Of a stretch of 42,897 nucleotides of DNA, positions 11,474 through 28,241 are shown piece by piece. The notes beneath the pieces are model-generated. The model ran no database searches. It was given only the letters and a program-made list of their open reading frames with translations, and had not been told where the DNA came from. This stretch comes from a phage, in NCBI GenBank assembly GCA_029955215.1, contig GCA_029955215.1_4351.1. The stretch is one strand, 5' to 3'. A program made the translations under genes and the position numbers. Every line of letters starts with the position of its first letter. Position 1 is the stretch's first letter.

Positions 11474-11476
11474 TAA

Positions 11477-11781: not shown

Positions 11782-11847
11782 ACTATTTGTTTATGTATTC
11801 CAGTTATTCCACCAAATTGTAAATGTTGGAATAAACTATTCGAATAG

Positions 11848-12083: not shown

Positions 12084-12100
12084 ATCGAGAAAGGGGAAAC

Positions 12101-12487
12101 ATGAATCTTAAAGCAACTGTCGTAGCGGGAGCATGTTTCATCATCCTGGCCTACGCACACGGCATATACCAGTACCGCAGCGGCTGGAACGAAGGCCGGG
12201 CGAACCTCGTTTCGCAGCAACAGCAGAAAGCACAGACTGAGCTAGCGAAGAAAACACAACGGCAGCAGCAGGATGAATCAAAGGCCGCAGCCGCTGACAA
12301 CGAAGGCAAGACGAAATCAGAGGTGATTACCCGTGAAGTCGTTAAGTACATTAAAACGCCTGGTCGCAGCGTGTGCACTTTCGACCCTGAGCGCGTGCAG
12401 CTCAAGTCCCGCGCCGTCGCAAACGCCAATTCCATCCCCGGATACGACGATGATGCAGCCGCCGTGCAAACTGGCACCGCCAAGTAG
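12101..12487 (+). CDS. i-spanin (Rz-like)
   Basis: N-terminal TM helix VVAGACFIILAYA, Q/K/A-rich coiled-coil region; overlaps the Rz1-like ORF. Confidence 0.6.
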   Translation: MNLKATVVAGACFIILAYAHGIYQYRSGWNEGRANLVSQQQQKAQTELAKKTQRQQQDESKAAAADNEGKTKSEVITREVVKYIKTPGRSVCTFDPERVQLKSRAVANANSIPGYDDDAAAVQTGTAK

Positions 12488-12678: not shown

Positions 12679-13380
12679 ATGAATCGTTTTTTACGTTATC
12701 CGTTCCAGGAAGAAGCTGGGGCAGAAGATAAAGCTGGTGGCGGCGACGCGCCGAAAATGTTCACCGCTGAAGAAGTTCAGGCGATTATCGAGAAAGAAGT
12801 TGCCGGGCTTAAGGCTAATCAGGAAGCATTGCTGGCGGAGAAGAAAGAAGCCGCTCGTAAAGCAAAAGAGGCCGAAGAAGAACGGCAGCGCGCACACCAG
12901 GAGGCGTTAAAAGCCGCTGGTAAAATGGACGAGTTTGAAAAGACGATTCGTAGCCAGTATGACCCGGTGTTAGCTGAGAAAGATGGTCGCATCTCCAGAA
13001 TGGCAGAGCGCATCCTCGGCAGCGAACGTAAGGCGGTGTTAGGCTCTTTCGCTGGTGACTTTATTACCCCGGAAGCAGTGGACATCCTTGCGCCGTTCGT
13101 TAAGACTGAGTTTGAAGGCGATGACGTGGTTACTAAGTTTGTCGGCGCAGATGGCAACGTAATCACGACTGACCCGGAACAGTTCCGCAAATACCTGCGT
13201 GAACACAAAGCGTTTTCGCATTTGATTAAAGCAAATGCAGCTTCCGGCGGCGGGGCTTCCGGTGGCAAAGGCGGCGGGGCCGCACCAGCGTTTAAAGACA
13301 TGAGTGAAGCGGAGCGTTTAGCTCTGTATAAATCGAACCCTGCCGAATTTGAACGGCAACTTAAAGCCCTGAGGAAATAA
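12679..13380 (+). CDS. scaffolding protein (putative)
   Basis: Directly upstream of major capsid gene; Ala/Glu/Lys-rich coiled-coil character. Confidence 0.6.
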   Translation: MNRFLRYPFQEEAGAEDKAGGGDAPKMFTAEEVQAIIEKEVAGLKANQEALLAEKKEAARKAKEAEEERQRAHQEALKAAGKMDEFEKTIRSQYDPVLAEKDGRISRMAERILGSERKAVLGSFAGDFITPEAVDILAPFVKTEFEGDDVVTKFVGADGNVITTDPEQFRKYLREHKAFSHLIKANAASGGGASGGKGGGAAPAFKDMSEAERLALYKSNPAEFERQLKALRK

Positions 13381-13382
13381 TA

Positions 13383-14432
13383 ATGGCAATTACCACTATC
13401 GGCGATATCGTAACTGGCAACATCCCGGTCCTGGCGTCTTATATGACCGAGGACCCGGTAGAGAAAACCGCGTTCTTCCAGTCCGGTATTCTGACCCCGA
13501 CCCCGTACGCCGCTGAGATTGCCCGCGGTCCGTCCAACATCGCCAACATTCCTTTCTGGAAAGCGATTGATACCTCTATCGAGCCTAACTACTCGAACGA
13601 TGTGTATCAGGACATCGCTACCCCGCGTAATGTGCAAACCGGTGAGATGATGGCCCGCGTTGCGTACCTGAACGAAGGTTTTGGTCAGGCGGACCTGACT
13701 GTTGAACTTACCAGCCAGAATCCGCTGCAATCCGTGGCGTCCCGTCTGGATAACTTCTGGCAGCGCCAGGCGCAACGCCGTCTGATTGCTACCGCGCTCG
13801 GCCTGTACAACGACAACGTAGCCGCTACCGATGCTTACCACGAGCAGAATGACATGGTAATCGACGTGTCCGCTACTCTGGGCTTCGACTCCGGCGCGTT
13901 CATCGACGCTACCCAGACTATGGGTGATGCTCTGATGGGCAACGGCGGTGAAGTGTTGGGTGCTATCGCGATGCACAGCTTCGTTTATGCGCAGGCGCGT
14001 AAGCAGCAGCTTATCGACTTCATTCGTGATGCTGACAACAACACCATGTTTGCCACCTACCAGGGCTACCGTGTGATTGTTGACGACAGCATGACCGTAG
14101 TCGGTACCGGCCCGAGCCGTAAGTTCATCTCCATCATCTTTGGCAATGGCGCTATCGGTTACGGCGAAGGCTCCCCGGCCAATCCGCTGGCCTACGAGCG
14201 CGAAGAATCCCGCGGCAACGGCGGTGGCGTTGAAACCCTGTGGACCCGTAAGACCTGGTTGCTGCATCCACTGGGCTACAGCTTCACCAGCACAGTAATC
14301 ACCGGTAACGGCACCGAGACTGTCGCACGTTCTGCTTCCTGGCAGGACCTGGCGAACGCCTCCAACTGGAACCGTGTGGTTGAGCGTAAGCATGTACCGA
14401 TTGCCTTCCTGGTAACTGGTGTCGGGGCTTAA
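13383..14432 (+). CDS. major capsid protein
   Basis: 349-aa ORF after scaffold, strong codon bias, followed by stoichiometry-type hairpin. Confidence 0.8.
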   Translation: MAITTIGDIVTGNIPVLASYMTEDPVEKTAFFQSGILTPTPYAAEIARGPSNIANIPFWKAIDTSIEPNYSNDVYQDIATPRNVQTGEMMARVAYLNEGFGQADLTVELTSQNPLQSVASRLDNFWQRQAQRRLIATALGLYNDNVAATDAYHEQNDMVIDVSATLGFDSGAFIDATQTMGDALMGNGGEVLGAIAMHSFVYAQARKQQLIDFIRDADNNTMFATYQGYRVIVDDSMTVVGTGPSRKFISIIFGNGAIGYGEGSPANPLAYEREESRGNGGGVETLWTRKTWLLHPLGYSFTSTVITGNGTETVARSASWQDLANASNWNRVVERKHVPIAFLVTGVGA

Positions 14433-14449
14433 GGTTAAGATATAATCGG

Positions 14450-14475
14450 GAGGGACTTCGGTCCCTCTTTTCATT
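14450..14475 (+). terminator. rho-independent terminator after capsid gene
   Basis: gagggac-ttcg-gtccctc followed by ttttcattt. Confidence 0.65.
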
Positions 14476-14491
14476 TACTAAGAGGTAAATT

Positions 14492-14791
14492 ATGGCTAAG
14501 ACCGGAAAAGGCTTGCCGCGCAGCCTTCAGAACGTCGATTTCGGCGACTTTGACATCCCAGTAACGCCGGCTACTACCAGCGTAGTTGGTGGGGTTAAAA
14601 AGTCAGCTACTGTGGCTGCACCTGCGGCCATTACCGCTGGCGAAGGAGCGCAGTCTGCTGATGCTCCAACTAAGACAGAGTTCGATGCTCTTGTAGCCGA
14701 GTACAACAAACTTCGAACTGATGTTACCGCGCTGCGCACTACCGTAGCAAATCTGTTGACTGCGCTTAAAAACGCAGGAACCGTAAGCTAA
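14492..14791 (+). CDS. hypothetical structural protein (99 aa)
   Basis: ATG after agagg; Ala/Thr-rich. Confidence 0.5.
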   Translation: MAKTGKGLPRSLQNVDFGDFDIPVTPATTSVVGGVKKSATVAAPAAITAGEGAQSADAPTKTEFDALVAEYNKLRTDVTALRTTVANLLTALKNAGTVS

Positions 14792-14803
14792 AGGAGCTTA
14801 AAA

Positions 14804-15154
14804 ATGGTTGATGTAATCAAACGTCGTATTACCGGAGTTTCTGACGATTCTCCTGCCGACGGTCAGGTTGAAATCGACATGGCAAATATCTCACCAGCAT
14901 CTTTTTCTACCGCGCTCGCGGCTACCACCGCAGTTACGGCAGGGCAGACTATGACCCTGACCGTCGCAGTAACTGGCGGTCAGGAGCCATATTCCTACCA
15001 GTGGTACAAGAACAACAATGCCATCGCCGGGGCTACCGCAGCTACCTACGCTAAAGCGTCAACCACTACTGCCGATTCTGGTACGTATAAAGTGGTTGCT
15101 CAGGACGATTATGGTAATATTATCTCGAGTAGCACTGTAGCAACTGTGTCTTAA
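14804..15154 (+). CDS. Ig-like-domain protein (116 aa), possible decoration protein
   Basis: YSYQWYKNNNAI...SGTYKVVAQDDYG; AAGGAG RBS. Confidence 0.5.
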   Translation: MVDVIKRRITGVSDDSPADGQVEIDMANISPASFSTALAATTAVTAGQTMTLTVAVTGGQEPYSYQWYKNNNAIAGATAATYAKASTTTADSGTYKVVAQDDYGNIISSSTVATVS

Positions 15155-15190
15155 TACAACGGCCCTTCGGGGCCGTAATAAGGAAAGGTC

Positions 15191-15370
15191 ATGGCAGATA
15201 ATTATGTAATCCGCGAAAAGTACACTCACGTTGATGTTGTTGACGGTCAGGTGATGCCAGTTCGCGGTGTTGTGGAAGCGGATGAACTGGTTACGACTCA
15301 ACCGGACAGCGAAGAAGCACACAACAACGGCGGTGGTGCCAAGCGACGTCGCCGTAAGTCAGAGGAATAA
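15191..15370 (+). CDS. hypothetical small protein (59 aa, not in ORF track)
   Basis: ATG 15191 after aggaaagg; stop TAA 15368-15370. Confidence 0.4.
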   Translation: MADNYVIREKYTHVDVVDGQVMPVRGVVEADELVTTQPDSEEAHNNGGGAKRRRRKSEE

Positions 15371-15373
15371 TTT

Positions 15374-15886
15374 ATGCCGCTAATCGTGGAAACGGGAGAA
15401 ATCGTCCCTAATGCTGACAGTTACATTAGTCTGGCCGACGCCCGCGCGTTAGCGGCTAATTATGGCCTTGAGTTACCAGCTGACGATACCGCCGCAGAGG
15501 TGGCCTTACGCAACGGTGCCACTTATGTCGGGCTTGCGGAGCCGCAGATGTGTGGTCGTCGCGTGTCCTCCGAACAGTCTCTGGCGTATCCTCGCACCGG
15601 CGTTACGCTAAACGGCTTCCCGGTATCGAACAATGCCATCCCGAAGCAGGTGATTCTTGCGCAGGTAATCGCTGCCGCTACATATGGCGCAGGTACGGAA
15701 GTGCGGGCTAACTCAGACGGTCGTTCCGTGCAGACTGAGCGCGTAGAAGGAGCGGTGACAGTGACCTACTTCAACAACGGCAGCAGTGGTGCTACGACCG
15801 CGATTACCGCTGCGGACGACGCCTTACGCCCGTTACTGTGTGGTGGTCTTAACAATGGCTTCTCATTTAACGTGTACCGGGGTTAA
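15374..15886 (+). CDS. head-tail connector/adaptor family protein (putative)
   Basis: Position between capsid and neck genes; 170 aa. Confidence 0.45.
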   Translation: MPLIVETGEIVPNADSYISLADARALAANYGLELPADDTAAEVALRNGATYVGLAEPQMCGRRVSSEQSLAYPRTGVTLNGFPVSNNAIPKQVILAQVIAAATYGAGTEVRANSDGRSVQTERVEGAVTVTYFNNGSSGATTAITAADDALRPLLCGGLNNGFSFNVYRG

Positions 15887-15888
15887 AA

Positions 15889-16503
15889 ATGGCGAAGACT
15901 AAAACAGAGATATTTACCCTTATAGGCGCTAATCTTCCGGATAACACCGACAAACTTATCACTCCCGCAGCATTGCGCGAGGTAATGACGCAGATGGCCG
16001 ACTCGCCTATTTACGCCACTCCGGGTGTTAAAGAGGTAGAAGTTCTCCGTGCCGCGTCTACCGTGGCGCAAGCGCCTACCGCAGTAGATACAGCGTTACA
16101 GTTAACTTTCGGGGCTGCGCAGGGTAGCACATCCGACCCTGTAATGATTAATGCCGCAGGGCTGGTTACTTTCAACACCGCGGGAAACTATGCCGTTCGC
16201 ATCAAGTTACAGGCAGGGCGCACTGGAGCGAGCGGGACATCCATCCTGTTGTCGCGTATTCTTCTGAACGGCGCTCAATACGGTTCTCCCGCAGCAACTA
16301 AGCTGGTAAGCGCCGACATAACAATTCCTATTGAGTCCCGCGTTGTTATTGGCCCAACCGCAGGCCAGACGTTTGCCGTTCAGATTATGCGGGATAGCGC
16401 CGGGAGTAACTTCGGCGGCGTATATCCGCAAGCGGCTACGGTAACTGCATGGGGTACAGCACCATCTGCGCTACTGGTTATCTCGAGACTGGAGGCTGCC
16501 TGA
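15889..16503 (+). CDS. hypothetical structural protein (204 aa)
   Basis: Structural-module position; Ala/Thr-rich. Confidence 0.45.
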   Translation: MAKTKTEIFTLIGANLPDNTDKLITPAALREVMTQMADSPIYATPGVKEVEVLRAASTVAQAPTAVDTALQLTFGAAQGSTSDPVMINAAGLVTFNTAGNYAVRIKLQAGRTGASGTSILLSRILLNGAQYGSPAATKLVSADITIPIESRVVIGPTAGQTFAVQIMRDSAGSNFGGVYPQAATVTAWGTAPSALLVISRLEAA

Positions 16504-16862
16504 TGAGCACCGATTTCAGTAAACGTATGCAAGGCGTAGGTACGCGCCTGCTAACCAAATTCGGTAGCACGGTATCTCTGGTTCGCGCTGGCTCGAAAGT
16601 GTGGGACGAAGTTCTCGGCGAATACGTCTGGTCTGCGGATGAAGTGTTGCCGTTGAAGGCCGTTCCGGTTCCTGTTAACGCAGGACTGGTAAACGGTACG
16701 ACGATTCAGGCAGGTGACATGATCGTTAAGGCTGATTACAGCGTCGTTCCGAAGATGGAAGACAAGGTGCAATTTGGCGGCGAGCAATGGTCTATCGAAG
16801 CCATTGAGAAGAAGATGGTTAATGATGATGTCGTGGCCTACTTTATCCAGGTGAGAAAATGA
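16503..16862 (+). CDS. head-tail joining protein (putative)
   Basis: ATG 16503 overlaps upstream stop; position. Confidence 0.45.
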   Translation: MSTDFSKRMQGVGTRLLTKFGSTVSLVRAGSKVWDEVLGEYVWSADEVLPLKAVPVPVNAGLVNGTTIQAGDMIVKADYSVVPKMEDKVQFGGEQWSIEAIEKKMVNDDVVAYFIQVRK

Positions 16863-17257
16863 CACCATTTGAACAGTCTATTCAGAATTTTATAAAGAAG
16901 GCCAAAAAGAACCCTGAACTGGTGGTTCGCCAGGTCACGATTAAATTATATTCTCAGATTATAATGGCAAGTCCCGTTAAGACGGGTAGATTCAGGATGA
17001 ATTGGCAGGTCAGTAATAACAAGCCAGCAACGGGTGTTTTAATAGCAGACGACCCTTCCGGGAGCAGAGCTATAGGTCGGATGACAAATTACGTTATATC
17101 ATCTCCTGAGTGGGAAAATTTCTGTTTTACAAATAATTTGCCATATGCGGAAAGGTTAGAATATGGGTACTCACAACAAGCACCTCAAGGCATGGTCCGT
17201 GTGACTGTCGCCAGATTTCAACGTCTACTCAACGAAGCTGCGGCGAGGGCAGATTGA
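16859..17257 (+). CDS. neck protein, HK97 gp10-like (putative)
   Basis: GRFRMNWQ motif region typical of the gp10 family as recalled; AT-rich relative to neighbours. Confidence 0.5.
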   Translation: MTPFEQSIQNFIKKAKKNPELVVRQVTIKLYSQIIMASPVKTGRFRMNWQVSNNKPATGVLIADDPSGSRAIGRMTNYVISSPEWENFCFTNNLPYAERLEYGYSQQAPQGMVRVTVARFQRLLNEAAARAD

Positions 17258-17670
17258 TGGGCTACTTTGAGGACTTAACCAAAGCGTTTGATGTGCCGTT
17301 GGTGGCCTTCGGGACCGCAAACGGCATCAGGGTTGCGCTTGAAAATATCGACGCGCCGACGTCAACCGATACGCCGTATCTGGCGAGTTACATGTTGCTG
17401 GCAGATACGGAACAGGCGGATTTGTTCTTCACCGAGCAACGCTCAGGTGTTTATCAGGTCAACATTAACTACGCGTCGGTGAAAGGTAGCGCGCCAATCA
17501 ATAAAATGGCAGACTTACTTAACACGGTGTTTAAAGCAGGTAAGTCATTTTCACGTAACGACATCTGCGCCGAGGTTCAATCAGTTAGCCTGGGGCCGCT
17601 GATTGTAGAAAACGGATGGGCCAAAAGACCATTGTCAATTAACTTTATTGCATTCACCAAGAGGCTGTGA
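17257..17670 (+). CDS. tail completion / neck protein (putative)
   Basis: ATG 17257 overlapping upstream TGA; position before major tail protein. Confidence 0.45.
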   Translation: MGYFEDLTKAFDVPLVAFGTANGIRVALENIDAPTSTDTPYLASYMLLADTEQADLFFTEQRSGVYQVNINYASVKGSAPINKMADLLNTVFKAGKSFSRNDICAEVQSVSLGPLIVENGWAKRPLSINFIAFTKRL

Positions 17671-17672
17671 AT

Positions 17673-18839
17673 ATGGCTACAACTCCTTTTAAGGGCGCGA
17701 ATACCGCGCAATTCTATGTGGCGGAAGTGACCCCGGGCGTAACACCAAGTAACCCGGTATGGTCGCCGTTGCGTAGCACTGGCGGCGTTCCTGCCGTAAC
17801 CCGCGATGCGCTGACTTCCAACGAACTGGACGGCAGCCGTGAAACTACATCCATCCGCACTGGCAATAAGCAGGTAAGCGGGGAGTATGCCATCGAACTT
17901 AGCTCTCGTAGTCAGGATGATTTCCTGGCTGGCGCGATGACTTCTACGTGGCAGGATGGGGTAGAGATTACGGGTGCCGAAATTACTGTCGCCCCCGCAG
18001 GTAAAACATTCACCCGCGCTGCCGGTAGCTTCATTACTGACGGTGTAGAAGTTGGTGACCTTATTGCGTTCACCGACTTAACCGGCGACAACGCAAAACC
18101 GTTTATCGTGACCGCGGTTTCTGCTCTTGTAGTTACGGGTGCGGGCATTCAGCACACGCTGACAGCAGAGACTGTAACCACCGACGCTAAAACTGGCGAT
18201 AAACTGGAAACCGGTAACGCATGTAAGACGTTCTCCATCCTGACATGGTTCAAAGGACAGTGCGGGAACCCTGACGCGTACATGTTGACCAAAGGCGTGG
18301 AAATCTCCGGTTTCACCATTGAACAGGCCGTAAACGCGATGGTGACAGGCAGCTTCCCGTTCATCGGCCTGAGTCAGGAGATTCTTACCACGCCGCCGTC
18401 TGGCTCTGATTTCTCTCAGGTGACGTTCACGGACGAGCCGTTCTCTTCTGTAGATGTGTCTGTGTTCGACGGTTCTACGCCGTTGCGTTGCGATACTCTC
18501 ACTATCACCAACGATAACGGTGCTTCCGCGCAGTTCGAACTCGGCAACAGTAGCGTCGCGTTCGTGGAACGGGGGCGCGCAGCTAACACCTTTTCCATCT
18601 CCGGTAAGCTGTACGACATGACGATGATTCAGAAGTTTATCAACGAGCAGCAGGTAGAGATTAACTCTATTCTGGCGGGGGTAAACGGGGCTATGTCTTT
18701 CAGTTTGAAACGTGCGGAACTTACGGCGGTTACGCCTGAGATTGGCGGACCTGAGTCAATCACTCAGTCCATTGAAGGCCAGGCTACTGGCAACCAGTAC
18801 CAGTCGTCTATCGTGATTCAACGTATCACCTACGCATAA
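17673..18839 (+). CDS. major tail protein
   Basis: About 389 aa, position before chaperone/tape-measure genes, followed by strong terminator. Confidence 0.7.
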   Translation: MATTPFKGANTAQFYVAEVTPGVTPSNPVWSPLRSTGGVPAVTRDALTSNELDGSRETTSIRTGNKQVSGEYAIELSSRSQDDFLAGAMTSTWQDGVEITGAEITVAPAGKTFTRAAGSFITDGVEVGDLIAFTDLTGDNAKPFIVTAVSALVVTGAGIQHTLTAETVTTDAKTGDKLETGNACKTFSILTWFKGQCGNPDAYMLTKGVEISGFTIEQAVNAMVTGSFPFIGLSQEILTTPPSGSDFSQVTFTDEPFSSVDVSVFDGSTPLRCDTLTITNDNGASAQFELGNSSVAFVERGRAANTFSISGKLYDMTMIQKFINEQQVEINSILAGVNGAMSFSLKRAELTAVTPEIGGPESITQSIEGQATGNQYQSSIVIQRITYA

Positions 18840-18843
18840 AACT

Positions 18844-18868
18844 AAGGCCCCGAAAGGGGCCTTTTTCT
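18844..18868. terminator. bidirectional rho-independent terminator
   Basis: aaggcccc-gaaa-ggggcctt followed by tttctt; convergent gene ends on both sides. Confidence 0.8.
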
Positions 18869-18870
18869 TA

Positions 18871-19044
18871 CTAATTTTTGAAGGGCATTTCATAGAAATT
18901 AGTTAACTGGCCTCGGTCACTTCGTTCTGTCATTTCTTTAGAGGCCTCTTCCTTACTACCGACGGCATAAATATCAACCCACTCGTCCCATTCTTCGTCG
19001 TATACACGGATTACATATATTGTTTTCATAATATTTTCGCTCAT
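18871..19044 (-). CDS. hypothetical small protein (about 57 aa)
   Basis: Last gene of minus-strand cassette; start chosen at internal ATG; overlaps 18974-19267 in another frame. Confidence 0.35.
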   Translation of the reverse strand: MSENIMKTIYVIRVYDEEWDEWVDIYAVGSKEEASKEMTERSDRGQLTNFYEMPFKN

Positions 19045-19267
19045 CAATATTATCCCTGTACTCCCGTAACTTCTCCAGACTCTCAATTGCTTCCGCTAAG
19101 TCGGTTCCTGTGTCCTTGTGCCCCCGCAAGCCCATACACAATAGCTTCTTCAATGCGTGCTGTAACGCCGGGTCGCGGATGTCGAAGGCACGTAGCACGT
19201 CGTAAACGTCTACTGTCATAGTGCTGCCGTGAGTGTTTGTCATTGTGCGGTTGTATTTTGAAGTCAT
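18974..19267 (-). CDS. hypothetical protein (97 aa)
   Basis: ORF downstream of HNH gene in minus-strand cassette. Confidence 0.45.
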   Translation of the reverse strand: MTSKYNRTMTNTHGSTMTVDVYDVLRAFDIRDPALQHALKKLLCMGLRGHKDTGTDLAEAIESLEKLREYRDNIDERKYYENNICNPCIRRRMGRVG

Positions 19268-19280
19268 AAATCAATCTCCC

Positions 19281-19751
19281 CTACTCATGGTTTTCATGAA
19301 AACCGTATTTACTCTCGGCGGCTTTACGCGCGGCAACCGCTACATCAAAATCGTCGTAAAGCCCTAAATGCACTTGTTTGTAGTTAACTTTTATAAACGC
19401 GCGCCACTTACCCGCGGCTTTGTGGAAACTTACACCTGTAGCCCCGGATTTATTTATCTTTCTCATAGTTTTATTTTTACTGCCCCCTGTATTGTCGGTG
19501 GCGCGTAGATTTTCTATTCTATTGTCTAGCCTGTTATGGTTTATGTGGTCTATTTGAGTTTTCCTGTCTAAGTCGCATTTATTATAAAGACACCATGCTA
19601 TGCGGTGGACATACACTGTTTTACCACCCATACCGCAGCACAGATAGCCTCTTACACCAACCGTACCAACCTCAGCACCAGTAGATATCCTGGTAACCTG
19701 CCCCGTCTCAGGGCAGTATTTAAATTGTTTTGAAACATCAAGATACTTCAT
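19281..19751 (-). CDS. HNH homing endonuclease with AP2-type DNA-binding domain
   Basis: H-N-H region IDHINHNRLDNRIENL; C-terminal GVSFHKAAGKWRAFIKVNYKQVHLGLYDDFDVAVAARKAAE resembles an AP2 domain; AT-rich gene. Confidence 0.8.
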   Translation of the reverse strand: MKYLDVSKQFKYCPETGQVTRISTGAEVGTVGVRGYLCCGMGGKTVYVHRIAWCLYNKCDLDRKTQIDHINHNRLDNRIENLRATDNTGGSKNKTMRKINKSGATGVSFHKAAGKWRAFIKVNYKQVHLGLYDDFDVAVAARKAAESKYGFHENHE

Positions 19752-20878
19752 CTTAGCATCTCCGGTGAGATTGAAAGCCTACCTACTTCCCCGAACTCTG
19801 AACTATAGGTTATGACATTAGCGGACCTCTTAGACATCCACCCGCCGCGAGAAGCATATGCATCTTTCGCCGCGAGAGTGCGATGTTGTTCCACTACCAT
19901 ATTCCTACTTTCTACAATCTTTTGATGGTGGAGATGCCCGACATGTGCGTAACTGTACTCGCTTTCGCCAAATGCTTTTCTGAACTTAGCTATCATAATG
20001 GGTTCGACCACCTCAAACCGGCATTTATGCCCGTGTGTAAAGAACAGTGTCGTTTTACCGTGTTGCACCATCTTGTAAACATCCGGCGACGTATCGACGA
20101 ACACACGCGGCTCATTGTCGTACAGCGTACTGAACATCTCAGCCAACCAAATCATTCCGCTTTCGTCGTGGTTCCCTTGCACGATAAGCAAGCGAACATT
20201 TTTATGCTTAACCAGCGCCATACCAACAACACGGCGTACCATACGAATCATGTAGCGGACTAGTTTCTGGTAGCGCGTGTCCGCATCAAGAACATGACCG
20301 CTCGCTGGCGTAACGGCATCCAGACTATCGAAGTGTGCGAAGTCCCCGAGCAGATTAATGACTCCTGTTCCTGCATCTGGCGCTTTCTGGAATGCCGCAT
20401 CGAACCATCGGGAGAACAGGTCTTCAGCAATCTTCATATCCCAGTCGTCGCCGCTCTCGTCGGCCCAGGCCAGCATGCCGAGATGGAAATCAGATACCGT
20501 GTAAAGATTGAGTAGTTTGTCGTCACGTTTGGCTCGAGTCGCTTTAACAGGCGCAACTGGGGTAATCTCTGACTTCATGCCTTCAACCACGGCTTTCATC
20601 AACTCAACCTGACGTTCGGCATCGGTGTCGGTCTTAACCCATTGCAACTTAGTGTTGCCGAACTCGTCTACCAGTGACGACGTTCCTTTAATCTTGTAGC
20701 CGTCTGGCACAAGGTGACTAACATCACGACCATGACCTACGCCTTTCTTCGCCAGCTTCGCTTTACGGATACGAATAACGCGGTCTGAGATGCCGTATTT
20801 ACGGGCAATGTCGATATTCTTCATCCCGACGTTCAATTCTTCCTGTAACTGTTCGTCGGTTATTTTCTTCTGGGCCAT
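19748..20878 (-). CDS. HTH domain fused to calcineurin-like metallophosphoesterase (SbcD/Mre11-like motifs)
   Basis: N-terminal DIARKYGISDRVIRIRKAK; motifs SDFHLG, GDFAHFD, GNHDE, THGH, GHLHH. Confidence 0.7.
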   Translation of the reverse strand: MAQKKITDEQLQEELNVGMKNIDIARKYGISDRVIRIRKAKLAKKGVGHGRDVSHLVPDGYKIKGTSSLVDEFGNTKLQWVKTDTDAERQVELMKAVVEGMKSEITPVAPVKATRAKRDDKLLNLYTVSDFHLGMLAWADESGDDWDMKIAEDLFSRWFDAAFQKAPDAGTGVINLLGDFAHFDSLDAVTPASGHVLDADTRYQKLVRYMIRMVRRVVGMALVKHKNVRLLIVQGNHDESGMIWLAEMFSTLYDNEPRVFVDTSPDVYKMVQHGKTTLFFTHGHKCRFEVVEPIMIAKFRKAFGESEYSYAHVGHLHHQKIVESRNMVVEQHRTLAAKDAYASRGGWMSKRSANVITYSSEFGEVGRLSISPEMLR

Positions 20879-20916
20879 GCTTACTTCCTCGTGTTTAGGA
20901 TTTGTCCTATACTAGC

Positions 20917-21108
20917 TCACTTCTCGTTAACATTCGAGTTGCACGCCCAGATTAAAATAAATACCCACGGCAGCAGAACCCAACCAAGAAACAGGTTAGC
21001 CATGAATATCGCCAACTTCGCTTTATGGTTACGGAAATATGCAACCAGGAAAGGCGCGAAATAAGCGAGCAGTGCAAACAGAATTAAGGAAACTGGTAAA
21101 CTTGACAT
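20917..21108 (-). CDS. small two-TM membrane protein, superinfection-immunity (Imm)-like
   Basis: YFAPFLVAYFRNH...LGWVLLPWVFILIWA; start at second ATG with aagggg RBS (ORF track start 21123). Confidence 0.5.
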   Translation of the reverse strand: MSSLPVSLILFALLAYFAPFLVAYFRNHKAKLAIFMANLFLGWVLLPWVFILIWACNSNVNEK

Positions 21109-21138
21109 TTTAAACCCCTTCATTGTTGGTGTAAGTGA

Positions 21139-21167
21139 ATAGTACCCTATTATATTGGGGTGTGCAA
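21139..21167 (-). promoter_or_regulatory. sigma70-like promoter, class I (TTGCAC-N17-TACTAT) driving minus-strand cassette
   Basis: Minus-strand reading ttgcac-accccaatataataggg-tactat. Confidence 0.6.
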
Positions 21168-21275
21168 GTAATGTGATAGAATAATTTTGCGCCTAGTGTC
21201 GCACACGAAAAGCGGGTGGTTCCCGTCTGGCGCATTTATCGATAACCTGTAACCTCTTAACCAAAGGATTAAAGA

Positions 21276-21695
21276 ATGAAACTTTCTGATTTTTATTTCG
21301 AAGAGAAAGCACTGGTAGGCAAGAAAATGCCGATTCTGCTGCCGAATGGCGAAGACTCCGGCGAGTGGCTTAATGTTGTAAGCCCTGATGCGGATGCCGC
21401 CGTTAAAGCGGGGCGTGCTTTCATTATCGCGTACCGTCGCGGACTGGCGCGTTTTGAAGAACTGGAAAAAACCGCTAAAGCCTCCGGCGACTATACAGAA
21501 TATAACCTGGCGATTAATGAACTGGCGGAAGACCTCAACCGGCAACTCGCGGCTGAAGTCGTAAACGGCTGGAGCTTCGACGACGAGCCTTTCTCTAAGG
21601 AAGCGTTTAACAAATTGCTCGACCAGTTCAAAGGGCTTGGAACCCAGGTAGCCGCGTTCCATAACGCTGAGCGCAAAGCATTACAGGAAAAGTAG
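21276..21695 (+). CDS. tail assembly chaperone (putative)
   Basis: Position immediately upstream of tape measure; acidic 139-aa protein. Confidence 0.5.
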   Translation: MKLSDFYFEEKALVGKKMPILLPNGEDSGEWLNVVSPDADAAVKAGRAFIIAYRRGLARFEELEKTAKASGDYTEYNLAINELAEDLNRQLAAEVVNGWSFDDEPFSKEAFNKLLDQFKGLGTQVAAFHNAERKALQEK

Positions 21696-21727
21696 ACGCG
21701 CTGTACAGGTTCGCCACCTACGAGTTT

Positions 21728-22060
21728 GTGGATAAGCATAAAATCAGAGAGTTTGATTCTATAGCTGACGGACATGAACAGGCGCTTATCGCGATGGGTG
21801 TAATCGATAAGAAAAAACGTGCAGCGCGACGGGGTGGGCCAGAATGCCCGCCCCTTTTCATATCCACCTTTGAGACGTATTGCGACATTAAGTTTACGCG
21901 ACACGTGCGCGAGGACGCTGTAGTATTGTTTGCAAGAGAATCCGTTACGTGGCAAGACCTGAAAGCCTATCTCGACGTTACACAAAAACAGCTTAGCCTG
22001 TTCGAGATAGACATTATCATGGGCTTAGAAGCAATCTTTGAAGGTAGAAATAATGGCTGA
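21728..22060 (+). CDS. hypothetical protein upstream of tape measure (start uncertain)
   Basis: GTG-initiated ORF; no frameshift connection to 21276-21695 found. Confidence 0.35.
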   Translation: MDKHKIREFDSIADGHEQALIAMGVIDKKKRAARRGGPECPPLFISTFETYCDIKFTRHVREDAVVLFARESVTWQDLKAYLDVTQKQLSLFEIDIIMGLEAIFEGRNNG

Positions 22061-24323
22061 TATCGCTAGCTTGATAGTACGAGTATCCGCAACCGGCGTC
22101 GATAAAGTCACATCACAACTGAACGGGCTTACTAAAGCCGCAGGCGCTGCGGCTGCCGCCGTTGTCAGCCTGGAAACCGCTAAGCAGGTGTTCAGTGCGC
22201 TGGTGGACTCCCAGCGAAACTTCGATAAGCTGAACTCCGGCCTCATCACAATGACCGGGAGTGCTGAGAACGCGGCTAAGGCTTTCAGCGTCCTGCAACA
22301 GTTCGCGAAAGAAACCCCGTACGGCCTCAACCAGGCGGTGGAAGGCTTTACTAAACTTGTAGCCCTCGGCCTGAACCCCAGCAAAGAGGCGTTAATCTCC
22401 TACGGCAACACCGCCGCTGCGATGGGTAAAGACCTTAATCAGATGATTGAGGCCGTGGCGGACGCCAGTACATTTGAATTTGAGCGACTGAAAGAGTTCG
22501 GTATTAAGTCTTCCCAACAGGCAGATACCGTTTCGTTCACGTTCCGCGGCGTAACGACCACAGTTAAGAAGAACTCCGAAGAAATTCAGAAATACCTGCT
22601 AAACATCGGTAACACTGATTTCGCCGGGGCGATGGAAACGCGTTCGAAAACCCTTGACGGGCAGTTATCTAGCCTCGCGGACTCCTTTGACGGCCTTGTA
22701 CTTGCGGTGGCGCAATCAGGTTTCGGCGACGCCGTAGGTGAGCAAGCTGCGACAGCGGAAGATGCCATCACGGCCCTAACCGATGCCATCGCGTCTAATG
22801 AGATAGCAGCCACGCTCCAGGATTGGGTGACACTGTTCAATGAATCGTTCAAGTTTATTTCTGACGCTTTGAACGATCTGGCATACGACACCGAGGACAA
22901 ATCCGTGGATATGTCCGACTCGCTGGGGACTATCCCGGACGCTATTCGTGAGTGGTTGCCTGACATTCAGCAGACATTCCACGAGGTTATTGCGTGGTTC
23001 CAGCGCATTGACGATTACGCGGTCGCGTTAGGCCAGACCCTCGCCGACGTGTTCGACCCGAGCAAAACGGCAGCGCTAACATTTAAAAACCTGACCGCAG
23101 AGGCCGACGCCGCATACGCCGCCAGCATAAAACGCGCAGAGGCCGAATCACAGGCTATCACCAACAGGTCTAAGCAGCGTAAGAAAGAAATTGAGGAACA
23201 GCGCAAGCAGTATGACGAGCGCAAGAAGCAAGAAATTGACTTAGCCAGCCTTGTTAATAAAAAGAGCGGAAATGGTGGAACCGGAAATACCAACGACAAA
23301 GACGCGAAAGCCGCCGCTAAGAAAGCGGAGCAATTGCGTAAACAGGCCCAGGATTATCTCGACACTTTGGCCCGTCAGAACAACGACGAATTAAAGGCTA
23401 TTGACGCACAGGAACAGCAGAAACTGGCTAAGGCAAAAGAGTTCTACAACCAGGGCGCGTTGGCTCTGAAAGAATACGAGCAAGCAAAAACGGCTATCGT
23501 CCTCGAAGCCGGACAAGCACGGCAGGAAGAGCTGGATAAGCGAGAGAAAGAACGGCAGGAAAAGCAGCAGAAAGGTGAAGACTTCATGGCTCAGATTATG
23601 GGTCAGAATGCCGCCGAGCTTGAGCTTCTGGAAATTCAGGAACAACAAAAACTGGACGTTGCGGACCGATACCGCGAACAGAACCTTATTAATGAGGAGC
23701 AGTACCAGGCTGCGGTTAATGCCATAAATGACCAATATGCTTTGAAGCGCGCCAACGCTACAGGTAACGCTTTCGGGATGATGGCGGATAACATGAAGGC
23801 CTCACTAGGGGAGGCGTCGTCCGCGTACAAAGCATTCGCTATTGCTCAGGCCACAATCGCCACATACACCTCCGCTATTGAGGCTTATAAATCAGCGTCC
23901 GCTATCCCCGTGATTGGCTGGGTTATGGGGCCAATTGCCGCCGCCGCCGCCGTAGCCGCCGGTATGGCTAACATAGGTAAGATTCGTTCGGCTCGTGAAC
24001 AGGGTGGTCAATTATCCGCGGGCCAGATGTCCACCATCGCTGAACGCGGTAAACCGGAGGTTATCATGCCTGCGGGGGCATCGCGTGTGCGCACCGCGCA
24101 GCAGATGAAAGAGATTATGGGGCAAAACGGCGGAAACTCCGGCGGTGACAGCGTGACAATTGTCAACAACACCACCGGGCGAGTTGATTCTGCGGTAACA
24201 GAACGTGATGACGAAGGGCGTTTACGTATTATAATCAGTGAAACAGTATCGGCGGCGTTACAGGACAGCAACAGCGCAATCTCTAAGTCACGCCGTGCTA
24301 CACGAAACCAGCCGGGGTATTAA
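22053..24323 (+). CDS. tape measure protein
   Basis: 756 aa, long coiled-coil Ala/Gln/Glu/Lys-rich stretches, hydrophobic GWVMGPIAAAAAVAAGM segment. Confidence 0.85.
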   Translation: MADIASLIVRVSATGVDKVTSQLNGLTKAAGAAAAAVVSLETAKQVFSALVDSQRNFDKLNSGLITMTGSAENAAKAFSVLQQFAKETPYGLNQAVEGFTKLVALGLNPSKEALISYGNTAAAMGKDLNQMIEAVADASTFEFERLKEFGIKSSQQADTVSFTFRGVTTTVKKNSEEIQKYLLNIGNTDFAGAMETRSKTLDGQLSSLADSFDGLVLAVAQSGFGDAVGEQAATAEDAITALTDAIASNEIAATLQDWVTLFNESFKFISDALNDLAYDTEDKSVDMSDSLGTIPDAIREWLPDIQQTFHEVIAWFQRIDDYAVALGQTLADVFDPSKTAALTFKNLTAEADAAYAASIKRAEAESQAITNRSKQRKKEIEEQRKQYDERKKQEIDLASLVNKKSGNGGTGNTNDKDAKAAAKKAEQLRKQAQDYLDTLARQNNDELKAIDAQEQQKLAKAKEFYNQGALALKEYEQAKTAIVLEAGQARQEELDKREKERQEKQQKGEDFMAQIMGQNAAELELLEIQEQQKLDVADRYREQNLINEEQYQAAVNAINDQYALKRANATGNAFGMMADNMKASLGEASSAYKAFAIAQATIATYTSAIEAYKSASAIPVIGWVMGPIAAAAAVAAGMANIGKIRSAREQGGQLSAGQMSTIAERGKPEVIMPAGASRVRTAQQMKEIMGQNGGNSGGDSVTIVNNTTGRVDSAVTERDDEGRLRIIISETVSAALQDSNSAISKSRRATRNQPGY

Positions 24324-24326
24324 ACT

Positions 24327-24821
24327 ATGTCTTCTTTAAGGTTCCCAATGTCCCTTCGGCCAATAGTGTCGAAGGGGTACTCCCAAACGCGAGGGAGTAA
24401 TATCTGGCGTACAGAAGTTCAGGGTGGCGTACCTCGCCAGGGGCGTGATACATACTTTGAACCGGTGCCGATTAGCGTTACCCTGGTCGTATCGTCACTA
24501 GGCCGCCAGGCTTTCTATAGCTTCCTGAATAACATAGACGGCGGTGCGTCGTCGTTCATCATGCCCCACGACACCGGGTTAGGTATCGAAGACCACCAGG
24601 TGCTTATTACGTCAGACATTAGTGACAGTACTGATGACGGTAAGAACTGGGTTATTACGTTCACAGCAACAGCAGAACGCACTGCGATTCAGGAAGACAC
24701 ATGTCTTACGAAGAATCTTCCTGATTTGTTCGGTTGCTATGGTGATTGTTTAGGAGGGTTCCTCAAAGCATACGGAACCGCGCAATCAACGTTTCCACGA
24801 ATTTGGTACCCGATGCAATGA
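24327..24821 (+). CDS. minor tail protein (distal tail, putative)
   Basis: Position after tape measure. Confidence 0.5.
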   Translation: MSSLRFPMSLRPIVSKGYSQTRGSNIWRTEVQGGVPRQGRDTYFEPVPISVTLVVSSLGRQAFYSFLNNIDGGASSFIMPHDTGLGIEDHQVLITSDISDSTDDGKNWVITFTATAERTAIQEDTCLTKNLPDLFGCYGDCLGGFLKAYGTAQSTFPRIWYPMQ

Positions 24822-25333
24822 GCCAGGAATCAGTAGAAGCCGCATATCGCCGTAAGCTGGCTTCTAACCCTGACGGCGAAATTGACTACACGACGCTGGA
24901 GATAGTTCACCCGCTTCTTTCGAAGCGGTATTTGCTTGTTCGCGGAACTTCCGACCTAACGGCGACGTTAGAGACTGGTGAAGTCGTTACGTTTGAGGCT
25001 ACGCCTATGGAGGCTAAAGGGGCCGCCAACAATAACGACATGGACCAGCGAGCATCGTTCGCATTGCCCGATATTGGAAACCAGTTAGACGATGAGATGG
25101 ATAGGATACCGCCCGATAATACCGTGTTGCCTAAGTTTATATTCCGCCGTTTTGTTAGTACCGATTTGTCTTACCCGGCTGACGGGCCTGTTGTGTACGA
25201 GTTGCAGTCGATAAACCAGGAGAAGGGGTTATTCACGGCGGATGTTGGCGTTCCTATGTTGAACCAAAGAGCCACTGGCGAGTTAATGACTCCTTCAGTA
25301 ATCCCATTGTTACGTGGTATTTTGTCTACATGA
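24818..25333 (+). CDS. minor tail protein (putative)
   Basis: ATG 24818 overlapping upstream TGA. Confidence 0.5.
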   Translation: MSQESVEAAYRRKLASNPDGEIDYTTLEIVHPLLSKRYLLVRGTSDLTATLETGEVVTFEATPMEAKGAANNNDMDQRASFALPDIGNQLDDEMDRIPPDNTVLPKFIFRRFVSTDLSYPADGPVVYELQSINQEKGLFTADVGVPMLNQRATGELMTPSVIPLLRGILST

Positions 25334-25695
25334 ACATTAATTCTTATACTGGTCTTCCGTATGATTTTCGCCGCCGTAATTGCTGGCACCATGTGTGTAA
25401 CGTTCGCGCGGACGCGGGGCTCCCCACGCCCGAGTTTAACGTCGCTTCGCCAACACAGATTAATGATGCCTTTGAAGAAGGCCATAAAGACACTAAAGGC
25501 CTAGTACACGTAGAAACTCCGCAAAACTTCGATGTCGTTCTGATGGCAACGCGGCACAGAAACCGTGTAATCTGGCACGCTGGCGTATATTATGGTGGTA
25601 TGGTCAGTCATTGCGAGCTAGCTAGTCGCCAGGTACGGTTAGACCGACTGGAAGACTTGCGCGAAACTTATGCGGAGATAGAATTTTGGCGCTGA
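25330..25695 (+). CDS. tail-associated NlpC/P60-family peptidase (gpK-like, putative)
   Basis: NCWHHV (candidate Cys nucleophile) and IWHAGVY (candidate His); 121 aa. Confidence 0.55.
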   Translation: MNINSYTGLPYDFRRRNCWHHVCNVRADAGLPTPEFNVASPTQINDAFEEGHKDTKGLVHVETPQNFDVVLMATRHRNRVIWHAGVYYGGMVSHCELASRQVRLDRLEDLRETYAEIEFWR

Positions 25696-28241
25696 TATTA
25701 CACTACACCCGTAACGAAGACGGTACTTTCGACCGCAAACGGTACAACGTACCGCCGATGGAATACGTCGTTGCTAACATCCCTGACGGGGTGCCGGTAC
25801 GTATTTACCGGGGCGAGATTGGCGAGGATACGGAAGTAACGGAAGATTTCGAAGCGCTGAAAGAAGACGACGTATTCCATATTATCGAAGGTGCTGGTGG
25901 CGGTGGCGGTTTTCTCGGAAAACTGCTTGACCCATTGGGTGTGCTTAAGTTTATCACTAAACTGATTTCCCCGTCGCAGAAAACGCCTAAAACTAGTTTA
26001 GCTAACCAGCAGGCGGAGTCGCCAAACAACAACCTGACGGACCGAAACAATAAACCTCGCCCGTATGAGCGGTCGTATGATATTTGCGGCAGGGTACAGA
26101 CTATCCCTAATGACCTCATGACTACCTATAAAATATTCGATGAATCCGGCCGAATTATCGAGTATGGATACTACGACGCCGGTCGAGGTTACCTGGATAT
26201 CAAAGCAGAAGACATTACTGACGGCGATACTAAAGTACAGGAGATTACAGGTACATCTGTCGCGGTGTATGCGCCGTTTACATCGCCTAACAATACAAAT
26301 ACTCCTCAGCTTCTGGTGGGGGAACCTATCAATCAGAATCTTTATATAACTATCGCTTCTAATGAAGTAGACGGAGCCGTTCTTAAAGCCCGTAACGATA
26401 TAAGGGTTAACCCTAGCGACACGGGCCGTGTGAGATATGACTCTGCTACAAAAATTGGATACCTGTATGATGGCACGGGGGATTCTGGCTTCGCGGAAAT
26501 ATTATCTGTTGGCGATACCGCGTCGTTCAATAACTTTGACGTTCCGGACGTAACAAATACCAACGGCAACTTTCGTGTTCTTTATGTCGATAACTTCGAG
26601 CTGCGGGTCGACACCGGCGGCGCGTCTAACTGGGCTGCTTTAGGTTCAACCACCTATTCACTTTCCCCGAGAAGTGACACGTGGGTGGGCCCTGTGAATA
26701 CGTATGAAAGAACATTAACCGACTGGACCACCTTAAACCGCCTGGAAGTTGAACGAGTAGTTGCTAACATTGCCGCCGCGAATGGCATGTACAAGGACAA
26801 CGGCAGTAAATTGCGCACCGCTGTAACTGTAGAGCTTCAATATCAGCTACTAGATGAATCCGGGGCGCCGTACGGAAGCATTTACTCGAAACAGGCCACT
26901 ATATCCGGGCGGTCCGCAGATTACACCGGGGTCACCATTTACGCCGACCTGCCCGTGCGGTCGAAAGTCAGGGTACGCGCCCGGCGTGTTACCAACCTGG
27001 ACCTCGATTTCGAGGGCACCGTGGTAGACGAGGTTTCCTACATCAACCTTTACGGGCAGGTCCGCGACACTACGCCGCATTACGGCAACCGTACTACTGT
27101 ACACTCTGCACGTAAGCAGACGCCGCGGGCCGCAGAGATTAAGCAGCCGCAGCTACGTATGGTCGCGACGGAGATGGTGTACAAATACCTCGGCAACGGC
27201 GTATTTGACGCGGTTATGACACCTAATACCCAAGCCGTTCAGTCGTTAATACGCCTGGCGCGGGACCCAGTAGTAGGAAACCTCAATCTCACCACGGCTA
27301 ACATGGATAAGTTGTTGGCTACGCAAGCAGAGATTGAAAATTATTTCGGAAATGCTGAGGCTGGGCAGTTCTGCTACACATTCGATGATTACAAAACGAC
27401 TATGCAGGACATCATCAGCACAATAGCTGATGCTATTTTCTGCACGCCATATCGTAAAGGGCAAGACATATTACTGGATTTCGAGCGCCCTCGTATGGGG
27501 CCGGAGATGGTATTCACCCACCGCAGTAAAACAACGGCATCCGAGAGGTGGACTAGGACATTCAACGACGCTCAGGTATACGATAGTCTTAAGTTCTCCT
27601 ACATCGACCCAGATACCAACGTAAAAGAGACTATTAGCATTCCAGCCGAGGGTGGTGTTAATACCGAAACGTATGACTCCAAGGGTATACGTAATTATCG
27701 CCAGGCGTACTGGGCGGCGTACCGCCGCTACCAGAAAAACCTGTTGAAGAAGGTAACGGTATCATTCACGGCGACAGAAGAAGGGATTTTTGCAATGCCT
27801 GGGCGTGCGGTAAGTGTGGTAAAAGGTTCGCGTATGGCTCCACAAGACGGCTATGTAATCGCCGTTAACGGGCTTACGCTTACTCTTTCTCGGCCGGTCG
27901 CGTTTACTCCTGGGGATGACCACTCACTGATTCTTAAGAAGCGAGACGGGGGAGTTCAAAGTGTTGCCGTTGTGCCTGGAAGCCACGACCGTGAAGTGGT
28001 TATGCTATCCGCGCCGCAGGAGGCAATTTACACGGGGAATAGCGCACTAAAAACTGAGTTTTCATTCGGCAACGAAGCAAGGCATAATGCTCAGATGATT
28101 CTTGTTTCTACAGTTGACCCCGGAGATGACAGAACAGTTAAGATTACCGGGATTAACTATGAAGCAGATTTCTATAAATACGACGGCGTCGCGCCTTTCG
28201 GGCGCGGTTTCTCCGACGGATTCAGCAACGGTTTTAGTTAA
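25686..28241 (+). CDS. tail tip / central tail fiber protein (gpJ-like, putative)
   Basis: 851 aa in the distal tail block; poly-Gly linker GAGGGGGFLG; start codon ambiguous (TTG 25686 or ATG 25758). Confidence 0.6.
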   Translation: MALILHYTRNEDGTFDRKRYNVPPMEYVVANIPDGVPVRIYRGEIGEDTEVTEDFEALKEDDVFHIIEGAGGGGGFLGKLLDPLGVLKFITKLISPSQKTPKTSLANQQAESPNNNLTDRNNKPRPYERSYDICGRVQTIPNDLMTTYKIFDESGRIIEYGYYDAGRGYLDIKAEDITDGDTKVQEITGTSVAVYAPFTSPNNTNTPQLLVGEPINQNLYITIASNEVDGAVLKARNDIRVNPSDTGRVRYDSATKIGYLYDGTGDSGFAEILSVGDTASFNNFDVPDVTNTNGNFRVLYVDNFELRVDTGGASNWAALGSTTYSLSPRSDTWVGPVNTYERTLTDWTTLNRLEVERVVANIAAANGMYKDNGSKLRTAVTVELQYQLLDESGAPYGSIYSKQATISGRSADYTGVTIYADLPVRSKVRVRARRVTNLDLDFEGTVVDEVSYINLYGQVRDTTPHYGNRTTVHSARKQTPRAAEIKQPQLRMVATEMVYKYLGNGVFDAVMTPNTQAVQSLIRLARDPVVGNLNLTTANMDKLLATQAEIENYFGNAEAGQFCYTFDDYKTTMQDIISTIADAIFCTPYRKGQDILLDFERPRMGPEMVFTHRSKTTASERWTRTFNDAQVYDSLKFSYIDPDTNVKETISIPAEGGVNTETYDSKGIRNYRQAYWAAYRRYQKNLLKKVTVSFTATEEGIFAMPGRAVSVVKGSRMAPQDGYVIAVNGLTLTLSRPVAFTPGDDHSLILKKRDGGVQSVAVVPGSHDREVVMLSAPQEAIYTGNSALKTEFSFGNEARHNAQMILVSTVDPGDDRTVKITGINYEADFYKYDGVAPFGRGFSDGFSNGFS

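Follow-up and report, generated by a model that had tools for sequence, protein, structure and literature searches.

HNH-AP2 gene in a leftward accessory operon

The DNA analysed here, called the window, is a contig of 42,897 nucleotides (nt) (NCBI GenBank assembly GCA_029955215.1, contig GCA_029955215.1_4351.1) from a Kagunavirus-like (Guernseyvirinae) siphophage, whose nearest deposited relatives are the Escherichia phages vB_EcoS-Ro145clw and Ro145c2YLVW. A leftward accessory operon separates the rightward tail-tube gene (17667-18839) from the gene for the tail assembly chaperone (from 21276), and its members are arranged in the order of an immunity gene, an exonuclease gene, an HNH gene, a 97-amino-acid (aa) open reading frame (ORF) and a 57-aa ORF. 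The HNH gene, located at 19281-19751 on the minus strand, is the subject of this report. It is a homing endonuclease gene (HEG) by type, and the copy in the window has probably lost its nuclease activity. The features that concern it are as follows.

19281-19751, minus strand: ORF of the HNH-AP2 homing endonuclease, intact, with an ATG start and 156 aa plus stop; the same as MDI0648254.1
19473-19616, minus strand: HNH domain (His-Me finger, I-HmuI-like), residues about 46-93, with D68-H69 ending the first β-strand, N81, and the helix 87-91
19305-19442, minus strand: AP2-type DNA-binding domain, residues about 104-149, consisting of three strands and a helix
19482-19484, minus strand: codon 90, which reads GGC (Gly) at the place of the predicted metal ligand (the equivalent of I-HmuI Asn96), with neither Asn nor His there
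19268-19747, minus strand: 480-bp insertion relative to the empty-site alleles, namely the HEG ORF minus the A of ATGA, with a 13-nt 3′ spacer
19268-19280, minus strand: the 13-nt spacer GGGAGATTGATTT, part of the insert, with a Shine-Dalgarno-like GGAG for the downstream 76-aa-type gene
19748-19840, minus strand: the last 93 nt of the exonuclease gene, recoded in linkage with the HEG; candidate target-site immunity tract
19841-20044, minus strand: further exonuclease 3′ tract, co-transferred with the HEG into Jerseyvirus; crossover at 20039-20044
19748-20878, minus strand: resident metallophosphoesterase or 'DNA repair exonuclease' gene, 376 aa, the TGA stop of which overlaps the ATG of the HEG (ATGA)
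18974-19267, minus strand: resident downstream gene, 97 aa here and 76 aa in relatives, matching the C-terminal part of phrog_2452

The protein encoded by the ORF showed a 100% match to NCBI MDI0648254.1, recorded as 'HNH endonuclease [Escherichia coli]'. It was matched by Pfam HNH_3 at residues 46-84 (E = 1.1e-9, 38.2 bits, against a gathering score of 24.8 bits) and by the PHROG family phrog_99, 'HNH endonuclease' (E = 6.6e-54). The Pfam AP2 match of the single sequence was weak (E = 1e-3, 19.7 bits, below the cut-off of 33.3 bits), and a PDB search with the single sequence gave insignificant matches only. A homologue search found 516 sequences, 78 of which were aligned as the family. HNH_3 was detected in all 78 of them and AP2 in 55 (best AP2 E = 1.5e-8), and significance in the PDB search was reached with the family profile, which matched the I-HmuI structure 1U3E over residues 27-101 (E = 2.7e-8) and the plant AP2 structures of WRI1 (E = 9.5e-7) and TEM1 (E = 6e-3) over residues about 104-153. 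In the AlphaFold2 model (mean predicted local distance difference test score, 94.3), the HNH part is a β-β-α unit with strands 66-69 and 82-85 and the helix 87-91, and the AP2 part has strands 107-110, 115-122 and 125-132 followed by a long helix, 135-148. A Foldseek search of the PDB with this model placed 1U3E at the top (E = 3.1e-5), followed by the AP2 domains of TEM1, WRI1 and AtERF1 (probability 0.98-1.0). The AP2 assignment is therefore solid, despite the weak score of the single sequence, because it is supported by the family (the Pfam matches and the profile) and by the structural evidence. By type, the ORF is a free-standing homing endonuclease gene with HNH and AP2 domains, and the architecture proposed by the sequence-only reading, an earlier annotation made from the letters alone, is real. 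No second gene of this HNH family was found in the window by phmmer and a hidden Markov model of the family, which were applied to all six-frame ORFs.

The same reading had assigned an H-N-H catalytic region to the motif IDHINHNRLDNRIENL, which corresponds to residues 67-82 of the 156-aa protein. This holds for the residues inside the motif. D68 and H69 are invariant in the 78 aligned homologues and lie at the end of the first β-strand, where the catalytic His of the His-Me (HNH) fingers is located (PMC5714182), and the central Asn of the H-N-H/N motif, N81, is present in 78 of 78 and aligned with I-HmuI N87. It does not hold for the predicted metal ligand, Asn90, which is Gly in this copy, as described below.

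The N-terminal nuclease domain is the same as that of I-HmuI from SPO1 (1U3E), and HNH_3 corresponds to 'Group 2' of the His-Me fingers (Jablonska et al. 2017, PMC5714182). However, I-HmuI is an intron-encoded nicking enzyme with helical and helix-turn-helix C-terminal DNA-binding modules, whereas the window gene is free-standing, carries an AP2 domain and has Gly at the position equivalent to Asn96. HNH-AP2 homing endonucleases were described by Magnani, Sjolander & Hake 2004 (as cited in PMC5714182 and PMC10448857). The arrangement of an N-terminal HNH and a C-terminal AP2 domain is shared with this class and with the 'IPA-HNH' HEGs of ICP1 (Barth et al. 2023, PMC10448857), which are likewise free-standing, phage-borne and found where the regions exchanged between related phages begin or end. 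The window gene is a canonical HNH_3 member, whereas the genes of ICP1 have diverged too far to be matched by the Pfam model of HNH_3. The GenBank records of sister phages label the gene as 'HNH homing endonuclease', the record of S134 notes its similarity to 1U3E and an AP2-type domain, and the genome paper of 590B lists the HNH gene (PMC9787291). The gene is thus a new member of a well-known class, and its sister copies are already annotated. In a literature search, we found no experimental study of this enzyme, of its target, or of a member at the 3′ end of the Guernseyvirinae exonuclease gene.

Insertion site, linked exonuclease tract and transfer between genera

Empty-site alleles were found in six phages, namely the Kagunaviruses Bas74 and JSSK01 and the Jerseyviruses f18SE, ST1, ER12 and SalM-TTS6. 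In these phages the exonuclease gene is directly followed by the 76-aa gene, and the stop and start codons overlap as ATGA. The cassette is seated exactly between the exonuclease stop codon and the start codon of the 76-aa gene, with a 4-bp ATGA ambiguity of the junctions in pairwise BLAST and multiple alignments. Its ATG takes over both the ATGA overlap and the upstream GGAG that formerly served the 76-aa gene, and the 13-nt spacer at its 3′ end provides a similar GGAG to the gene downstream. A phage collection of 50,697 records was searched, and the HEG was found in 39 of them (10 Escherichia and 29 Salmonella) at 96.7-99.8% identity, with the gene at this site in all cases. The adjoining annotated feature was an exonuclease/phosphoesterase gene or an unnamed 'hypothetical protein' in 38 of the 39 carriers; in the remaining one, 590B, the adjoining exonuclease gene is merely unannotated, and the locus is collinear with the window in an alignment. 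The locus as a whole was matched by about 404 records, and the HEG is missing from about 90% of the relatives.

The sequence-only reading had described the gene as AT-richer than its flanks and had taken this as a sign of recent horizontal acquisition. The guanine-plus-cytosine (GC) content of the HNH gene is 43.1%, as compared with 50.5% for the window, 53.7% for the tail-tube gene and 49.7% for the upstream exonuclease gene. The value is 1.8 SD under the mean of all 471-bp windows (z about -1.8), and 4.3% of these windows are as low or lower. Therefore, neither a flat GC profile nor a lack of empty-site alleles, the two findings named in advance as contrary to the proposal, was observed. The GC dip is genuine and consistent with a foreign origin; it is not unique and not diagnostic alone, and roughly ten further regions of the genome are equally AT-rich. 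The other stretches with 43.1% GC or less in 471-bp windows are 1-842, 11323-12174, 16668-17289, 20714-21391, 28829-29385, 30047-30766, 32335-33027, 38030-39502 and 42239-42897. The part of the exonuclease gene that travelled with the HEG is also AT-richer, at 47% GC versus 50-53% in the HEG-free alleles.

The acquisition became clear from a comparison of the window with seven HEG-carrying Jerseyviruses (S100, dunkel, S102, SE126_1H4, SeF1, ER21 and S134). The structural genes are 60-78% identical between the window and these phages, the segment from 19268 to about 20044 is 97-100% identical, and the identity then falls to about 75-80%; the HEG alone is 98.1% identical. Against S100, the exonuclease tract 19748-20044 contains 5 mismatches in 297 nt; upstream of 20045, the exonuclease gene is about 75% identical between the window and the Jerseyviruses. 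S100 matches f18SE, a Jerseyvirus without the HEG, at 96-100% identity right of 20045, and left of 20039 it has window-type sequence, which is just 64-84% identical to f18SE. On the other side, the 76-aa gene of the HEG-positive Jerseyviruses is the Jerseyvirus allele up to its ATG, and no transferred tract is present there. The transferred segment is thus about 773 bp long and strictly one-sided, and it comprises the HEG with its 13-nt spacer and ~293 bp from the exonuclease 3′ end. These alignments show that the HEG moved recently between Kagunavirus and Jerseyvirus together with an asymmetric co-conversion tract. A one-sided segment is the footprint that would be expected from the repair of a double-strand break after a cut on the exonuclease side. 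The proposal that the HEG may have brought the neighbouring accessory genes with it did not survive this comparison, as relatives that lack the HEG, in both genera, have the exonuclease, immunity and 76-aa genes as well; the spacer and the exonuclease 3′ end are its only passengers.

This arrangement resembles the 'intronless homing' of T4 SegG and MobE (Liu et al. 2003, cited in PMC10448857), in which the gene also lies between two resident genes and an asymmetric flanking tract of a neighbouring gene is inherited along with it by co-conversion from a cut some distance away. SegG belongs to the GIY-YIG enzymes, and in T4 the cleavage sites and marker exclusion were measured, whereas the cut site of the window gene is one that we infer. 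With junctions mapped to a few nt, the locus provides an unusually clean natural record of one homing event from an E. coli Kagunavirus to a Salmonella Jerseyvirus.

The part of the exonuclease gene next to the insertion differs sharply between carriers and non-carriers. In the HEG-free form, the last 93 nt are 88-95% identical among HEG-free phages of both genera and constitute the best-conserved part of the exonuclease gene between the genera. The carrier form is 65-69% identical to every HEG-free allele, yet only 6 of the 30 residues are changed, and the codon family was switched at Arg (CGT to AGG), Ser (AGC to TCC) and Leu (TTA to CTT). A search with the 94-nt tract gave identities of at least 95% in exactly the 39 HEG-carrying records, and the next matches were 78% or lower. 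From these patterns, we infer that the enzyme may recognise or cleave the HEG-free exonuclease gene towards its 3′ end, and that the recoded carrier allele would be immune. The recoded stretch of this essential-looking neighbour gene is thus a concrete candidate for the target or immunity site.

Several points weigh against this interpretation. Part of the divergent 3′ end (19841-20044) is also present in the HEG-free Kagunaviruses DUEC01 and GZMU_E2010, and therefore this part is not strictly linked to the HEG. The divergence of the exonuclease 3′ end could reflect a distant donor instead of selection for immunity. In addition, the identical tract boundary is shared by all seven of the Jerseyvirus carriers examined, which indicates one intergeneric event followed by spread, not several events, and the length of the tract therefore cannot locate the cut. 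A scan of IMG/VR for close relatives with independent co-conversion boundaries gave only relatives of 49% identity or less, in unrelated contexts.

More distant homologues, 69-73% identical to the HEG, are present in two metagenomic phage contigs (L019 and L020), where they lie directly after the exonuclease gene with a 4-nt overlap. The exonuclease and HNH genes of these contigs are about 72% identical to those of the window throughout. This HEG lineage has therefore long been associated with the exonuclease 3′ end, since these homologues are seated in the same manner. An origin of the recoded tract from their lineage was considered and is not supported, because the tract is no closer to L019/L020 (63-69%) than to the HEG-free alleles. 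L019, which has the 73%-identical HEG, also codes for a Mu-F-like head protein that contains an intein (PF14890; 1468-3327, minus strand), so that selfish elements of two kinds lie in the same small region of that genome.

Residue 90 and the activity of the window copy

In His-Me (HNH) fingers, an Asn or His in the first turn of the helix binds the metal directly and is often the sole direct ligand (PMC5714182). At the equivalent position of T4 endonuclease VII (EndoVII), the N62D mutant is inactive with its DNA binding intact (PMC6083498). The role of the helix Asn was taken from these two sources. In the profile alignment, D74, H75, N87 and N96 of I-HmuI are paired with D68, H69, N81 and position 90 of the window protein. 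Position 90 lies within the predicted helix 87-91 and outside the motif described above, and it was missed by the sequence-only reading. Asn is found at this position in 76 of the 78 aligned homologues and Gln in one. Of the 14 phage-genome copies of the HEG that were translated, 12 also have Asn (AAC), the other two being that of Ro145clw with Asp (GAC) and that of the window with Gly, and Asn is present in all 15 other variants of the 90% cluster that were read, so that Gly occurs in the window only. Nucleotide 19483 is the sole HEG difference between the window and Ro145clw, and three differences are found over 19040-21846 (2.8 kb). The HEG of Ro145c2YLVW has the same single-mismatch identity to the window, 99.8%, and the D90 state is thus probably shared by these two separately deposited phages. 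Among the first eight copies compared, about 12 variable sites were synonymous and 5 non-synonymous by manual count, and two of these five are in codon 90. The excess of synonymous sites fits with a protein that is generally under purifying selection.

Because the predicted metal-ligand Asn90 is replaced by Gly, the window copy is probably nuclease-dead or strongly impaired, as judged from sequence, and its present-day homing activity is doubtful for the same reason. It is a family member by descent that has no metal-ligand feature. The natural N90D of Ro145clw and N90G of the window are paralleled by N62D of T4 EndoVII and by N118A and N118D of F-CphI, in which the metal-binding helix Asn was mutated (PMC6083498). 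However, the EndoVII and F-CphI mutants are engineered and belong to another His-Me subfamily (with the EndoVII motif, without the central Asn), whereas N90D and N90G are natural. Together with the Asn copies, they constitute a natural N/D/G allelic series at the metal ligand, which is usable to study the loss of activity and the 'homing cycle' in lytic phages, and the lytic phages concerned are being developed for therapy and biocontrol. Three considerations count against a loss of activity. The equivalence of N90 and I-HmuI N96 comes from a profile alignment and a predicted model, not from a solved complex; the role of the ligand might partly be taken over by the invariant N93 or by N87; and G90 is present in one assembly contig only, for which a sequencing error is formally possible.

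Degenerate versions of the HEG were also found in public assemblies (P0005, P0008, P0124 and P0126). One has an internal deletion of the N81 region and one a chimeric N-terminus, and the others, from Salmonella Enteritidis assemblies, have a C-terminal truncation and a GTV duplication. These copies look like independent decay events, and their existence means that decay of the element does occur.

Taken together, we consider it quite probable that the ORF is a free-standing HNH(N)-AP2 homing endonuclease gene, carried as a mobile 480-bp cassette, and that this copy is probably disarmed. In a co-infection, the enzyme would bind DNA via its AP2 domain and would nick or cut the exonuclease gene of the HEG-free allele towards its 3′ end, at most about 290 bp upstream of the insertion point. 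The HEG and the stretch of exonuclease sequence up to the cut would then be copied from the HEG-carrying genome by recombinational repair, with the carrier allele presumably protected by the synonymous recoding. In the window copy, Asn90 may have changed to Gly via the Asp seen in the sister phage Ro145clw, and the HEG would now be in the degeneration phase of the homing cycle with its DNA binding kept.

The same homing endonuclease could still be catalytically active here, if Asp68 and N87 or N93 hold the metal and Gly90 is tolerated. Apart from this codon, the ORF is intact and differs little from the other copies, D68, H69, N81 and N93 are all present, and His-Me fingers often use an extra polar helix residue at +4 or +8 for the metal (PMC5714182). 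We regard this as rather unlikely, however, because Asn is kept at position 90 in nearly the whole family and in all close copies except that of Ro145clw, because the equivalent substitution inactivates T4 endonuclease VII, and because Gly has no side chain for metal coordination and destabilises the helix. Another explanation accepts the loss of catalysis and ascribes it to selection instead of neutral decay, with the N to D to G change having turned the protein of the Ro145 lineage into a domesticated, nuclease-dead, sequence-specific DNA binder. Such a protein might act as a regulator of the accessory operon or as a shield of the exonuclease 3′ target against incoming related HEGs. Two successive hits on one catalytic codon (AAC to GAC to GGC), with one other amino-acid change in the HEG of this lineage and with the window and Ro145clw nearly identical in the surrounding 2.8 kb (19040-21846, three nt different), are in line with this idea, and phages (CasPRs, bioRxiv 10.64898/2026.02.23.707548) and plants have both reused AP2 domains purely for DNA binding. 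Against it, the observation is post hoc and limited to a single codon of a small lineage, the same pattern would be expected from neutral decay once the element is fixed, and truncation is the form that decay takes in other copies; we therefore consider it improbable. If true, the adaptive disarming would capture in nature the domestication of a homing endonuclease into an AP2 DNA-binding protein.

Two further explanations deny that the gene is mobile or that it is a homing enzyme. An immobile ancestral Guernseyvirinae gene, repeatedly lost by clean deletion, would agree with the two distant contigs in which the 69-73% homologues co-diverge with the adjacent exonuclease gene, a sign of long vertical association in some lineages. 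It is hard to reconcile with the 98% identity of the gene and its 293-bp flank across genera next to flanking genes of 60-78%, or with the abrupt change, at either end, to the allele native to the recipient genus, and repeated loss would not yield identical, ATGA-precise junctions in both genera, which makes this history very improbable. Finally, a small HNH protein of a siphophage might be a terminase-associated packaging factor such as HK97 gp74. This seems scarcely credible here, since the gene is located in an accessory operon flanked by tail genes, some 17 kb away from the terminase-equivalent region, is dispensable as judged from its absence in about 90% of the relatives, and belongs to the HNH_3/I-HmuI group with an AP2 domain. 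The preferred explanation is accordingly a mobile homing endonuclease gene in which the window copy is probably disarmed.

Accessory-gene replacement and the neighbouring genes

The slot occupied by the HEG holds other cargo in other phages. In K1G it contains a polynucleotide kinase gene and an ATP-binding protein gene, and in DUEC01, GZMU_E2010 and fEg-Eco19 it contains ORFs of 66-77 aa, which matched no PHROG family and did not resemble the HEG. In K1G (1569-2608) and many K1-type Kagunaviruses, the polynucleotide kinase/phosphatase and ATP-binding protein genes replace the 76-aa gene together with the HEG. The region downstream of the exonuclease gene is thus a general hotspot for accessory-gene replacement. 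The possibility that the 97/76-aa ORF is a remnant of the K1G-type ATPase wrecked by the insertion was rejected, since an intact and conserved 76-aa gene abuts the exonuclease gene in HEG-free phages.

A second HNH-AP2 gene is present in Ro145clw (1566-2054), at the place (18876-19039 of the window) where the window has the 57-aa ORF. It encodes 162 aa, matches phrog_99 (E = 7e-49), is 38% identical to the first gene and keeps Asn at the metal-ligand position, and it was found in five phage records only. In fEg-Eco19, another HNH gene (210 aa, phrog_953, plus strand) lies in the same gap. Because further HNH genes are carried there by these two phages, this gap, which extends from the tail-tube terminator to the 76-aa gene, is a second landing site of HEGs. 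The window and Ro145clw are 99.68% identical over 19040-36437 (17.4 kb) and 88-96% elsewhere, and the left edge of this near-identical block (window 13087-18863 versus 19040-36437) is sharp and located exactly at the second HEG slot, 18864-19039. Nuclease genes are known to mark the boundaries of genetic exchange between phages (PMC10448857), and the position of the block edge fits with this. The accessory operon embedded among the tail genes is thus a hotspot in which HEGs mark recombination boundaries.

The remaining features of the operon are as follows.

21149-21177, minus strand: best sigma-70-like promoter match, by consensus only (10/12), upstream of the leftward operon
20917-21123, minus strand: superinfection-immunity gene, a resident member of the operon
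18871-19044, minus strand: 57-aa ORF at the end of the operon
18844-18863, no strand assigned: bidirectional terminator-like hairpin separating the tail-tube gene from the leftward operon

The stop codon of the 76-aa gene is lost in the window at 19037-19039 (TCG versus TTA/TCA, plus strand), which adds 21 codons and yields the 97-aa product. The read-through overlaps the 57-aa ORF, and the change is located at a mosaic junction (19037-19039, 19053-19054). The 76-aa protein matches just the C-terminal third of the longer PHROG families phrog_2452 and phrog_17613, the latter named 'ATPase'. On the other side of the operon, the chaperone ORF (21276-21695, plus strand) is followed by a second ORF in another frame (21728-22060, plus strand), right before the tape-measure gene, and the counterpart of this pair in K1G is annotated as a joined (frameshifted) product. 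A frameshifted pair of chaperone ORFs is the usual arrangement of the G/GT-type programmed frameshift.

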